Assembly: GCA_963422365.1 (NCBI GenBank)
Contig: OY729426.1
Location: forward strand, 320,001 to 384,000
Origin: Nitrospirales bacterium
GTDB lineage: Bacteria; Nitrospirota; Nitrospiria; Nitrospirales; UBA8639
Direction: 5' to 3'
Length of the DNA stretch: 64,000 nt
Shown here: one piece after another, positions 23,101 to 26,100 of the stretch
How the letters are laid out: each line of letters begins with the position of its first letter
How positions within the stretch are numbered: position 1 is the first letter of the stretch
Position numbers: made by a program

Positions 23101-26100
23101 GTATTATTTGCAACAAATGACTCACACACCGGTGTGTCGACCGCAGAGGAAAGACCGTTTCGACGGGCTTTAAAGCACGAGGGGCAGTACACCGCCCTGT
23201 CAGGACTGGGCCGGAAGGGGACGGTTGTCGACATATCGCAATCAGCGCAAACGGCCTGGTGGCGCTGTGTACGGTTAGATGGACGTAGACGGGTTGACGT
23301 TGATAGAGATTGAAAAGGCATAGGGAACAAACTCCTTAGTTATTGGTTATTGAGCATCCATGAGAACCTACCTGGCATTCGCCTACAGGGCACCACAAGG
23401 GTTCACCTCATACCACTCTATGTATCCTGGTCCGCGATCAGCAGGCGGTGACAGCCGTACAGGATTGGCGAAACCTAGCTTTTCTCAAGGTATCGATATT
23501 ATACAGTACCCGCGCCATAGAGCAGGGCGTCGAGCAGGCGGCGGCGGATGTCGCCGGCGGCGAGGGTTACCCTTCGTGGTCTCGCGTTCACTAACAAGCC
23601 GCTGAGGTCAGCGGCTATAAATTTGGCTCCTCGGGCAGGACTCGAACCTGCGACCAATCGGTTACGAGTTTCCCAGTATTTCTACCGGACTCGGACTATC
23701 TCATCACCAGCCTGACGAATCAGGTGAGGGTGTCGGGCGCTTGTGAGGTCTTATTGGGTTGGGTTCCTCAACCTCTAGTCTCTGCACGTTCTTGCCTACC
23801 AAGACCCTTCGGCAAGCTTCGATCAGGATTCCCTTTCCGAGTTCGCCACGAACTCGGGGAAGGCTTCCCTGAATTCACCCGATTTTTCAACCACAGTTTC
23901 CTGTGGAAGCTGCAATACGACGTGAATCTTTCGCACGCCTCCCTTTACAGCCGACCGCTCTACCAACTGAGCTACCGAGGAACACGATCGTTGGCTTCTT
24001 TTCCACCATGGTGGAGTCGGAGCGTGATCATAACATAATTCTGAAATTGAGCAATAGCTCCTGCCGACAACAGTTTCATATACTAAAACTGAAAATCGTC
24101 GGAATCCTCTTCGCCTTCTTCGGCCTCTGCCGCTCCACCTTCGGATAGCGCGACGTAATGCCGCGCCCAAGATAAATAAATGTTGGCGCTGTCTTTCATG
24201 GCATCGGCACCCATGGTCAATTTTTTGGCGACATCGGAATCTCCTCCCATGAGTTCCATTTCCTGGGCACGACTCTCTAATCGGTCATGGAATTGGCTCA
24301 TGTGCAGGGTAATCTCACCCATGAGTTCTCTGAGGTCATCGCTCATGTCCACACCTTCTGTTTCATTCGACTCTTGTGGGAGCTCACTTGAGAAAAAATT
24401 GAGAAAAAATAAAGCCCCACGACAATCAAAAATGATTCTGTCGTAGGGCCCTTAGCTGATACCTGATGTGTAAAACTACCCTTGATAGGCTTGTCCTAAG
24501 CCAGCGGCTTCTCCGGCCTTGTCCATCAAGGAACCATCAGCACTCACCGCCACCATGTCTATTGCCATATGTTTTGCAGCATCGCAAACCACTTTGCACA
24601 GCTCACAGCCCTTACATCGGTTGATGATTACTTCCGCCACCAGTTTTTCAACATTCAGGTCCAAACAATTGGCCTCGGGGCAGTACATGATGCACAACCG
24701 ACACCCTTTTTTGGCGACGCACTTTTCATCCGTCACTTGCGCTACGTTATACATGAATGCCTAGCCTTTCCCCTGTCTTCTTTATGCCGCCGCAACGGCT
24801 AGTTCGATATTATTCTTTTCCGCCCATTCACTCGCCATTTCGTATGCCCGGATGACCGTCTCCAAGTTTTTCTTTAACAGCATTTCTTTTTTGGCAAATT
24901 TTTTCTTAATGGCTTCATCCAAGGTGGCCGTTCCCCCAGAGGCCACAAACTTTTTCCCGAACCGCTCCTGCAGTGCCCCATCGAGTCCCTCCAGAGAAAC
25001 GCATTTGGTAATACCGGCAACAGAACCAATCATGGTCATGTTCGTGGAAAGTTCCGTACCAGCCACTTCCAACGCGACCTGGGTTCCTTTGATGTAAAAC
25101 ACCGCCACATCCAGATCCTTTAACCGCTTCACATCTTCATCTGATAAAAGCGGCACATCTGAATTAATGATGACAACTCCGTTTTCCTTAATACCCGAGT
25201 AAAATGGCATGGTATAACTTTTGCCCATCGTTATCACTTGCGGATGAAACACTTCAATCACGTCGGGAAAGACCAACTCTCCACGATCATAGATCCGACT
25301 GATACCAATCCGACAATAACTCTCAGCCGGCGCCATGCGCTTTTCCGCACCAAAAAATGGATTCGAGATCGCAAATTTTCCGTCACGTGACGCCGCCATC
25401 GCCAACACGTGTGCAGCCGTCACGGCACCCTGGCCACCAAGACCCGACATGCGAATATTTAATCTCCGCTTGATCATGATGCTTTCCCCTTTTTCATTCC
25501 GTAGGGAGGGCTCAGGCCTTTCCCGCCAATTGCTTTTTCGCAGCGGCTTTTCTTTCTTTTTCCTTCGCCGCCAGTTCGGTCAACAACTCTTTGGCTTGAT
25601 CACTGACATACTCCTTATACGCAAATCGTTCAGTCGGTTTTTCAGAGTCCCGCATTTCTTGCAAGCCTTCCATGCTGTTTTTCCCGATTTCCAGGATACA
25701 CGGGGTGTAGAGCTGCAAATAGGTAGGACCGATTTCGCGAGCCACATGAATCGCATTTTTGATGACTTTTTCAACAAGGTTTGGTTTGCTGACCGTACAA
25801 TTCACCACGTAGTGGCATCCGGACTCACGCGCGATTTCCGGCAGTTTGACCTTTTCAAACGTTTTTCCCACGGGAGCCATCTTAGCCACAAACCCTTTTT
25901 GCATTAATCCGCTTTCTTGGCCGCCTGTATTGGCGTAGAGCTCATTATCAAAACAAATGGTCGTGAATTTTTCTTGGCGGAACCAAGCTTGCAGCGTCAT
26001 ATCGAGGCCGATATCGACCGTTGCCCCATCACCGGCCAACACCACCACATCTTTGACCCGCCCGGGGAACCGCACGGTGAGGGCACGCTTGAGCCCCGAA

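Follow-up and report, generated by a model that had tools for sequence, protein, structure and literature searches.

A group I intron in the sole tRNA-Asn(GUU) gene of a Nitrospirales bacterium and its patchy distribution in the genus

Introns that interrupt tRNA-Asn and tRNA-Asp genes at position 35/36 were reportedly described, with in vitro splicing, by Nakagawa, Amikura, Omae, and Suzuki in 2025. The tRNA-Asn 35/36 class has very probably been published already (Williams 2020, bioRxiv 10.1101/2020.01.27.920355; Nakagawa 2025, bioRxiv 10.1101/2025.07.03.662931). The classical bacterial tRNA classes are Leu.3Ug, Arg.5Ug, fMet.2Ug, and Ile2.5Ug, all of which are IC3 introns in the database cited in the main text of Williams 2020, where the fMet type is called classical. 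The P11 pseudoknot of subgroup IA is associated with Jaeger, Westhof, Michel 1991 and is described in the relevant parts of the Candida albicans mtLSU intron structure (PMC12088405). Two accounts bear on the history of such introns: endonuclease decay after fixation belongs to the homing life cycle, as outlined in the pertinent part of Hausner et al. 2014 (PMC3984707), and the title of Rudi et al. 2002, on the cyanobacterial tRNA-Leu(UAA) intron, speaks of "recombination of the entire tRNA locus". In the literature searched, to which the phylum table of Williams 2020 did not belong, no paper naming Nitrospirota for the tRNA-Asn 35/36 intron was found.

The two split tRNA genes

The window is a stretch of 64,000 nucleotides of contig OY729426.1 (positions 320,001 to 384,000), from a genome of 2.50 Mb in a single contig that is 98.6% complete. 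In the whole genome, the standard ARAGORN run found 45 tRNAs and a tmRNA, including two CAU tRNAs and no tRNA-Asn. When introns were allowed, two genes were added: tRNA-Asn(gtt) at contig positions 343624-343981 and, as the third CAU tRNA, a gene at 779446-779804. Both hold an intron of 282 nt. Exactly two matches to Rfam Intron_gpI (RF00028) were found genome-wide (62.6 and 59.3 bits); the match in the tRNA-Asn gene covers 23672-23956 of the window (gathering score 50, E 2e-14). An exon search of the genome found no second tRNA-Asn gene, and three Asn calls at a relaxed ARAGORN threshold were flagged pseudogenes within long ORFs. These results confirmed the survey's finding that the sole tRNA-Asn(GUU) gene and the sole initiator tRNA gene are each split by a 282-nt group I intron. 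The tRNA-Asn gene consists of the following parts.

23947..23981, minus strand: 5' exon of tRNA-Asn(GUU), 35 nt, ending C32-U33-G34-U35, where U35 is U(-1) of the 5' splice site
23665..23946, minus strand: group I intron, 282 nt, at tRNA position 35/36, with omega-G as its last base (23665)
23624..23664, minus strand: 3' exon, 41 nt, starting U36-A37-A38, with discriminator G73 and encoded CCA

Intron-less relatives in the genus have the anticodon loop CU GUU AA and exons that are identical or differ by one base, so that isotype and splice site of the split gene are both certain. A parse as tRNA-Thr(CGU) with the intron after U33 was rejected, because the intron would not end in G and the intron-less orthologues read GUU. 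The second intron is of the fMet.2Ug type: it lies after U33 (CU/CAUAA) of an initiator tRNA with three G-C pairs in the anticodon stem and has U(-1) and omega-G. The two introns have only short core motifs in common (best local match 20 nt). Since there is no other Asn tRNA, splicing of the Asn intron would be essential, and the same applies to the unrelated fMet intron; both would have to be spliced for translation. As for the survey's claim that all asparagine decoding and all initiation depend on ribozyme splicing, its premise of two sole, split tRNA genes stood, and splicing itself we infer.

Such genomes are reported by standard annotation as having neither tRNA-Asn nor tRNA-fMet, which affects claims on genome completeness and codon usage in nitrifiers. 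This reliance of translation on two ribozymes is real, though of a kind already known.

Structure of the tRNA-Asn intron and its predicted splicing

A covariation alignment of 29 introns, 16 of them from the genus, gave a structure model in which 96.5% of cells are paired and 47 of the 88 pairs show two-sided changes. No value as high was obtained in 500 shuffles, slid controls were 35-41% paired, and the fold z-score of the intron was -3.96. The core helices P3, P4, P5, P6, P7, P8, and P9 and the G-binding site in P7 are all present, with one private mismatch in P6.

23916..23946, minus strand: L1 loop, a small hairpin apparently left by deletion of an HNH homing-endonuclease gene; about 300 nt in ORF-bearing relatives
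23909..23915, minus strand: internal guide sequence, 3' strand of P1, whose partners are GCUGU of the exon and intron bases 1 and 2
23891..23906, minus strand: P2 hairpin with GAAA loop, two-sided changes in 6/6 pairs, 100% paired
23733..23882, minus strand: P3 pseudoknot (23882-23876 with 23739-23733), 99.5% paired
23786..23872, minus strand: P4-P5-P5a-P6-P6a domain, from the structure alignment
23693..23782, minus strand: P7 (23782-23776 with 23698-23693) with guanosine-binding G-C pair and bulged A, 6/6 pairs invariant in 29/29 introns
23745..23807, minus strand: P7.1 insertion (23775-23745) and a P11-like loop-loop pairing of 4 bp between L6a (23807-23804) and L7.1 (23764-23761), from covariation
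23705..23732, minus strand: P8/P8a, from the structure alignment
23666..23692, minus strand: P9.0 and P9 (GAAA loop), directly before omega-G, two-sided changes in 2/3 pairs of P9.0 and 5/7 pairs of P9

The U.G wobble of P1 at the splice site was found in all 29 introns, and the first five pairs are invariant in 29/29. Covariation was not seen at exon position -5, where the guide C is constant and the exon varies (anchoring failed for 26 introns, and several were mis-anchored); only the four anticodon-loop pairs of P1 are general. The L6a-L7.1 pairing is 98% paired in the 29-intron alignment, with two-sided changes in three of four pairs. An R element could be recognised in 97 introns, and 26 of these (with the genus collapsed to one) had loops that fitted the motif. 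At least four Watson-Crick pairs were possible in 21 of the 26, against a mean of 5.5 and a maximum of 13 with shuffled partners.

Based on this anatomy and on group I chemistry, P1 would form by pairing of the anticodon-loop CUGU with the guide sequence, placing U35.G at the cut, and a free guanosine bound in P7 would attack the 5' splice site. Omega-G, placed by P9.0, would then replace the guanosine, and the exons would join to give a normal tRNA-Asn of 76 nt. The L6a-L7.1 pairing may brace the two domains during these steps. A neighbouring DEAD-box helicase was considered as a dedicated splicing chaperone and rejected; among 20 loci it adjoins six intron-bearing and five intron-less genes and is absent from the other nine.

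That the intron is dead, or an assembly artefact, and that Asn codons are read by an unseen tRNA is scarcely credible, although two observations point that way. One is the private change in P6: position 23822 is U here and G in 28 of the 29 aligned introns, so that the first P6 pair becomes U.U instead of G.U. The same U is found in a contig of run X1, and the Rfam score is lower here (62.6 bits) than in ORF-bearing relatives (70-90 bits). The other is that in RNA-library contigs from this organism or its close relatives the gene was seen solely in unspliced form; the RNA material comprised assembled contigs from 4 of the 23 listed runs, in which small word shares are no evidence of habitat. 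Three of the listed contigs skip exactly 282 nt. Their 3' exon differs at five bases and their flanks are short or foreign; they are therefore not attributable to this organism and probably represent tRNA-Asn of other organisms; a fourth joined contig has a shifted joint and five mismatches in all. Against a dead intron stand the single-contig, nearly complete genome with no other Asn tRNA and the otherwise intact core. Against an artefact, all sampled words of the region occurred in five runs (not independent of the assembly), and over most of the intron, pieces from an earlier run matched the window without a difference.

Distribution, endonuclease loss, and probable exchange of alleles

Introns at the tRNA-Asn 35/36 site occur in many phyla, and most of them carry an HNH gene. 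When the HNH protein of G112, a relative in the family, was used as the query, 68 of 80 loci lay within a tRNA split CUGU/..G/UAA; 39 of the 68 had been called tRNA-Thr by ARAGORN and were re-parsed, and nine match through the stub only. An intact-looking HNH ORF was present in 50 of 60 long introns. Loci of Patescibacteria with a related HNH ORF have the same junctions as the Nitrospirales intron, the homology to 35/36 introns of other phyla, Patescibacteria included, being through the G112 HNH ORF and the shared core. A scan of genome contigs for the junction pattern gave 20 Asn 35/36 introns among the 120 matches listed, the rest being mostly chance. At the order level, 68 of 352 genomes, including the unpublished G162, match the Asn intron, the host tRNA being unconfirmed for most outside the family. 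The class is not specific to Nitrospirota. The proposal of a new tRNA-intron class, or of a novelty in Nitrospirota, was not supported, since the same intron occupies this site in many phyla and the fMet type is classical.

In place of an intact intron-encoded endonuclease, as autonomous homing demands, the intron here has only the 31-nt L1 stub. A stretch of 23 residues agrees at 19 with the C-terminal end of the G112 ORF, and most of these codons lie within the ribozyme core. The same stub is found in 15 of the 18 intron-bearing genomes of the genus, and the other three (G014, G027, and G035) retain about 65 nt more. None of the 38 genus genomes matched the HNH gene, with the N-terminal first 90 residues of the ORF as the query. 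The family shows a series of decay, from introns of 553-559 nt with damaged ORFs (G060, G109, and G112) through 345-347, 322, and 280-283 to 256-265 nt. The HNH label is based on ESM Atlas clusters, the nearest of which are HNH (PF01844 in 15-34% of members), and on a Cys/His pattern; the ORF was not recognised by Pfam or NCBIfam. These findings suggest that an HNH-bearing ancestor homed into the tRNA-Asn gene before the genus diversified and that the HNH gene was then deleted stepwise.

The recount agreed with the survey: the Asn intron is in 17 of 37 other genus genomes, an uninterrupted gene in 20, and the fMet intron in 35. In the two misses, G006 and G009, the fMet exons as well as the intron were unmatched, so that the gene was not found there, rather than being intron-less. 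With this genome, the Asn intron is present in 18 of 38, in a patchy pattern, which is closely linked to the region upstream of the tRNA gene.

23982..24082, minus strand: spacer of 101 nt with the "type A" promoter/leader, which goes with the intron throughout the genus
24083..24349, minus strand: small conserved ORF of 88 aa without a match in NCBIfam, the last gene of a 2-oxoacid:ferredoxin oxidoreductase cluster; in relatives it anchors the swapped block on the left

A putative extended -10 at 24035-24027 was read by eye; a consensus scan for promoters and terminators called none. The type A leader precedes 18 of 18 intron-bearing and 1 of 20 intron-less genes (37/38 concordant). Over its last 80 nt, identity to this genome was 0.76-0.91 in the 17 other intron-bearing genomes, 0.79 in the intron-less G009, and 0.49-0.61 in the other 19 intron-less ones. 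Between the sisters G003 (with intron) and G022 (without), identity is 96% along 4.6 kb on the upstream side and 98.9% along 4.2 kb on the downstream side. Yet their leaders are unrelated, and the 331 nt that immediately precede the leader hold 35 differences, compared with 21 in the ~820 nt beyond. For G019 (with intron) and G025 (without), 16 differences in 171 nt compare with 33 in ~980. The odd block is held by the intron-less member in G022, G025, and G005. G009 has a type A leader and no intron, and its upstream gene is closest to those of the intron-bearing G012 and G004. Outside the crown of the genus, the type A promoter and the intron are likewise found in its earliest-branching clade and in the sister-genus genome G057.

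These results point to allele swaps by homologous recombination as the source of presence and absence. The intron would move only as a passenger, in a block of upstream gene end, promoter, and 5' exon with or without intron that is exchanged between related species, and in most visible swaps an intron-less allele would have replaced an intron-bearing one. The polarisable swaps look like losses, as read from four cases in short windows. The present genome may itself have regained the intron by recombination: its intron is nearer to those of G015 and G037 (3.2%) than to that of its rpoBC sister G036 (7.1%), and the next relative, G029, is intron-less. The upstream region of G036 is itself nearly identical to that of G037. 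The survey's picture of a mobile element still spreading is not supported, in view of the HNH stub, the absence of HNH matches in the genus, the exchange of promoter-leader blocks, and the direction of the polarisable cases.

Tree-based tests were less discriminating, the species tree being that of one locus, rpoB+rpoC. The AU test rejected the rpoBC tree for the Asn intron (p=1.6e-4), but the fMet control was rejected as well (p=0.005; 1e-60 with the leader). The test is thus non-specific in a genus that recombines generally, and we discarded it as proof of intron transfer. Parsimony gave no direction: the pattern takes either 12 losses or 11 gains, and its 10 Fitch changes compare with 12.9 after shuffling (p=0.08). 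The distance correlation was rho 0.56 for Asn and 0.91 for fMet in 13 shared genomes, a contrast weakened by half as many differences in the Asn intron.

Homing in trans was considered as another history, in which tRNA-Asn genes lacking the intron are nicked by an HNH enzyme of outside origin (phage or ORF-bearing relative), and the intron is then copied in by one-sided repair together with the promoter. Nicking HNH enzymes in phages give one-directional co-conversion, and the linkage here is upstream only: leader and intron go together in 37 of 38 genomes, but downstream cargo does not follow (helicase and typA lie next to six intron-bearing and five intron-less genes in 20 loci). Free-standing HNH relatives adjoin an intron-less tRNA-Asn in three phage contigs, which are TAG-recoded, and the 92-93% identical ORF-bearing intron of G060 behind a type B promoter fits past homing of the intron alone. 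We nevertheless regard this history as unlikely, since HNH matches are absent from the 38 genus genomes, the copies in the family appear damaged, and the swaps that can be polarised go in the direction of loss. The phage matches show 59% identity, and nothing ties their hosts to Nitrospirales. Integration of islands (integrase fragment, restriction genes) is another explanation for the downstream uncoupling. Divergence among type A leaders follows that among species (Mantel rho 0.59 in 16 crown genomes), as mostly vertical descent would predict. A 50-nt, 82% match in five Klebsiella phages of INPHARED was treated as chance. It is similarly doubtful that mobility in trans by phage HNH enzymes maintains tRNA-Asn as a two-allele polymorphism of promoter and intron across dozens of species, with the intron as an undescribed IA-like hybrid.

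Purely vertical descent with about 12 independent precise excisions, for example through reverse-transcribed spliced RNA, and no exchange of alleles would agree with the occurrence of the intron in the earliest-branching clade of the genus and in the sister genus, and with the precision of every intron-less gene. However, precise loss would keep the type A leader, and 19 of 20 intron-less genes differ from it even at rpoBC distances of 0.02-0.03; the leader swap largely refutes this very improbable model, which could hold for G009 only. A functional link, in which the intron-bearing precursor requires the type A promoter or leader for its folding or as compensation, draws on the same concordance and on G057, G039, and G041, where a type A-like promoter is paired with the intron. 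We consider it highly improbable, because in G060 the intron is combined with a type B promoter, in G009, G044, and G049 a type A-like promoter occurs and no intron, and only 35 nt of exon lie between leader and intron, so that physical linkage suffices. We therefore consider it likely that this group I intron is functional, belongs to the widespread class at tRNA-Asn(GUU) 35/36, and is in a late, endonuclease-dead stage of homing with a history of allele swaps.

Comparison with known group I introns

The core motifs of the Asn intron presumably resemble those of tRNA-Leu/Ile-type introns. It shares with the classical tRNA introns the insertion in the anticodon loop, U.G at the 5' site, omega-G, and a compact P2-P9 core with P9.0, and differs in insertion site and host tRNA. 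In the scheme of Williams 2020, as given for loop positions 0-7 in its main text, the label Asn.4Ug (position 4, U(-1), omega-G) fits the intron. Compared with other members of the 35/36 class, the present one has a Nitrospirales host and a deleted ORF.

Subgroup IC3 (Azoarcus type) has a compact core with no P7.1 extension, whereas P7.1 is present and covarying in the Asn intron. Neither the P7.1 insertion nor the L6a-L7.1 pairing is among the elements listed for the Azoarcus pre-tRNA-Ile intron in the part of its description consulted. In subgroup IA, a P7 extension is anchored by P11 to an extended P6; the Asn intron has a P7 extension with P11-type pairing to a P6 extension, and its L6a-L7.1 pairing would act likewise. 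The P7.2 and P9.1 of subgroup IA are absent from the structure model, and we did not assign the intron to IA. Some Asn-35/36 relatives (e.g. L304, L311, and L350) have no P7.1 at all. The Nitrospirales intron may be a structural hybrid of a compact tRNA-type core and an IA-like P11 brace that is real and unpublished, a view that we hold tentatively and would lean slightly against. The P11-like brace is a testable prediction and bears on the classification of tRNA introns.

The decay of the endonuclease after fixation is common to the Asn intron and to the homing life cycle, within the outline taken from Hausner et al. 2014. The genus provides a clear late series of this cycle, in which stepwise deletion of the endonuclease would be followed by allele replacement that removes the intron, with promoter type as the marker. 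Loss of an intron from an essential bacterial gene, a question that can rarely be tested, becomes measurable in 38 genomes. Patchiness and locus exchange are shared with the cyanobacterial tRNA-Leu(UAA) intron of Rudi et al. 2002; compared with that case, the exchanged block here visibly takes in an alternative promoter/leader and part of the upstream gene.

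The split tRNA genes and their introns

ARAGORN found no tRNA-Asn in this single-contig genome without introns allowed. With introns allowed, it added a third CAU tRNA at contig 779446-779804 and the following gene in the window:

23981-23624, minus strand: split tRNA-Asn(GUU) gene, consisting of a 35-nt 5' exon ending in CUGU, a 282-nt insert with G as its last base, and a 3' exon of 41 nt starting with UAA

Against Rfam Intron_gpI (gathering threshold 50), the tRNA-Asn insert scored 62.6 bits and the third CAU tRNA's own 282-nt intron 59.3 bits; the genome gave no further group I match. 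In intron-less relatives, these exons are joined to read CU GUU AA, which fixes the insertion site at 35/36. No second tRNA-Asn gene was found in the genome. The initiator-type three G-C pairs of the anticodon stem were present in the third CAU tRNA and absent from the other two. The exon parse, the score and the sole Asn gene indicate that the survey correctly read this gene as split by a group I intron, and its reading of a split initiator tRNA holds on the score of the second intron and the three G-C pairs.

In the fMet intron (L032:1047-1405 in our record of this locus), a long hairpin is inserted in the 5' part, and Rfam misplaced P1 as a result. In distant family members the fMet intron match started only at about position 85, and in one genome (G056) it came in two pieces; these partial matches may hide an ORF.

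RNA-holding sequencing runs were examined as assembled contigs. Run X1, whose RNA origin is a guess, contained two pieces identical to window 23703 to 24005, corresponding to the precursor, and runs X2, X3, and X6 contained the precursor of relatives. Contigs skipping 282 nt had several mismatches, with short or foreign flanks. From the intact core and the position in the sole tRNA-Asn gene, we infer that the intron splices.

Ribozyme structure and range of the class

A structure model was built by hand, drawn from one member, and counted on 29 introns lacking an ORF, of which the genus supplied 16 and other genera and phyla 13. In these, 96.5% of cells were paired, with two-sided changes in 47 of 88 pairs. 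None of 500 shuffles reached the observed score, a test inflated by kinship, and slid controls were 35-41% paired. The U.G wobble of P1 at the 5' splice site occurred in all 29 introns, P7 including the G-binding pair was invariant, and P9.0 directly before omega-G was covarying. At 23822, in the first P6 pair, the source genome has U, whereas the other 28 introns have G (G.U in 27 and G-C in one). This private G-to-U change was confirmed in an earlier run (X1 contig) and is a natural test of that pair's importance. Furthermore, a P7.1 insertion is present, and its loop can pair with that of P6a (L6a-L7.1): at least four Watson-Crick pairs were formed in 21 of the 26 introns having both loops; when partners were shuffled, the mean was 5.5.

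Of 38 genus genomes, 18 contained the intron; in the family it was present in 25 of 115, and the tRNA-Asn gene was located in 100 of these 115. Matches occurred in 68 of 352 order genomes (including the unpublished G162), with the host gene checked for a minority of them, and named records labelled Nitrospirales held a short tRNA-Asn intron of the same form. Three family members had about 300 nt extra in the ribozyme loop L1, encoding an HNH-like protein whose ORF was damaged in all three by an early stop, a frameshift, or a His-to-Arg change. When this protein was used as the query against species genomes, 91 relatives were obtained and 80 kept: 68 lay inside a tRNA-Asn split at 35/36, 5 were parsed otherwise, and 7 were without a split tRNA. 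Record labels for these 68 loci included Omnitrophota, Patescibacteria, Elusimicrobiota, Deltaproteobacteria and Nitrospira; Acidobacteriota and cyanobacteria were further hosts among the matches listed by a pattern scan. The tRNA-Asn 35/36 class is widespread, and the intact-looking ORF in 50 of 60 long copies suggests that the family overall is probably mobile. Cyanobacterial records of Hormoscilla, Floridaenema, and Phormidium (L181, L208, and L230) carried the same intron with the L6a-L7.1 pairing.

A putatively viral IMG/VR contig contained a complete 566-nt tRNA-Asn intron with the HNH gene (L390:823-1464). A free-standing relative of the intron's HNH gene, 59% identical, was observed in three large phage contigs (L391:806-1318; L392 and L393 alike), directly after an intron-less tRNA-Asn(GUU) within a tRNA cluster. 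This phage ORF reads through for 140 aa only with TAG as Gln, and one TAG lined up with a Gln in the bacterial protein.

Probable allele exchange in the genus

On the rpoB+rpoC tree (61 genomes), the Asn intron was patchy, with 10 changes against 12.9 with shuffled labels (p=0.08). The form of the 101-nt promoter/leader spacer upstream of the source gene (type A) was found with all 18 intron-bearing genes and one intron-less gene, that of G009, which is a precise intron loss behind a type A leader. The other 19 intron-less genes had different, mutually more diverse spacers. Between the intron-bearing G003 and the intron-less G022, both flanks were 96-99% identical over 4 kb, and a block that starts about 330 nt within the upstream genes and extends through the leader differed; this divergent stretch between near-identical flanks marks a tract of recombination. 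In G022, G025, and G005, the block of the intron-less member was out of place relative to its neighbours. Type A with the intron also occurred in the basal genus clade and in the sister-genus genome G057. Together with the misplaced blocks and the G009 loss, this distribution makes the intron look ancestral in the genus and under replacement by intron-less alleles. Parsimony alone (12 losses vs 11 gains) did not choose between loss and gain. The source genome's intron was nearest to those of a clade that is not its sister, and G029, a near relative, has no intron; regain is therefore possible in the source genome.

The fMet intron, present in all 36 genomes in which the gene was found, followed species distance (rho 0.91). 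As a control it also failed the tree-conflict test, indicating that recombination is general in the genus rather than special to the Asn intron.

In the source genome, L1 is a stub of 31 nt, the final codons of which correspond to the HNH ORF's end. This stub was common to 15 genus members, three basal members retained about 65 nt more, and the first 90 residues of the ORF had no match in any of the 38 genus genomes. The copy had been proposed to be still spreading; the stub, the lack of HNH matches, and swaps towards intron-less alleles speak against this, and the claim of mobility should give way to one of passive allele exchange biased to loss.

Four type A leaders (L162, L015, L161, and L163, from G012, G004, G006, and G009) had an inserted G+C-rich palindrome of about 45 nt, possibly a small mobile repeat. 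In one genome (G030), an intron-less tRNA-Asn gene occurred in two identical copies separated by 2.7 kb and preceded by nearly identical leaders (L168:5050-5125 and 7771-7846), either a tandem duplication or an assembly repeat.

Window 19958-23330 encodes typA and a DEAD-box helicase that has a CxxC-x17-CxxC domain at its N-terminus. Both followed tRNA-Asn in 11 of 20 genus loci; the remaining 9 had type I restriction genes, glycosyltransferases, or an integrase fragment there, making the tRNA-Asn 3' end a cargo hotspot. A conserved ORF of 88 aa with an acidic tail and no NCBIfam match (window 24083-24349) closes a 2-oxoacid:ferredoxin oxidoreductase cluster in the genus and the examined family loci. 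About 750 nt of this cluster upstream of tRNA-Asn in G036 (L165) were 99.7% identical to G037, despite G036 being the source genome's sister on rpoBC; core carbon-fixation genes would thus have recently passed from one species to another.

Comparison with known tRNA introns

In a 2025 preprint cited in PMC12641178, Nakagawa and colleagues reportedly described a new site of insertion in tRNA genes of Patescibacteria, and Rudi 2002 is said to be a precedent for exchange of a whole tRNA-intron locus. The window intron had also been considered possibly a new bacterial tRNA-intron class. This is not upheld, since the same site is occupied in many phyla; the tRNA-Asn 35/36 intron very probably belongs to a class described before, here in one more lineage. 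Bacterial tRNA introns comprise 21 classes (Williams 2020, bioRxiv 10.1101/2020.01.27.920355), and by the naming rule used there the window intron is Asn.4Ug and the second intron the classical fMet.2Ug. Literature listings did not name a tRNA-Asn intron in Nitrospirota, a weak negative as published class tables may name it, and the accessible parts of PMC11835236, PMC7902536, PMC11915505, and PMC13168695 made no mention of a tRNA-Asn intron. In a limited literature search, neither promoter/leader-intron linkage nor, for tRNA introns, a P11-like pairing was mentioned.

For homing endonucleases, PMC3984707 describes decay following fixation. Subgroup IC3 is assigned to the classical bacterial tRNA introns (Williams 2020). 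In PMC12088405, P11 is a pseudoknot joining the P7 extension to the P6 stem, tied by a reference to subgroup IA; the L6a-L7.1 pairing of the tRNA-Asn intron would be alike. The promoter-linked swaps and this P11-like brace are modest additions to a known class.
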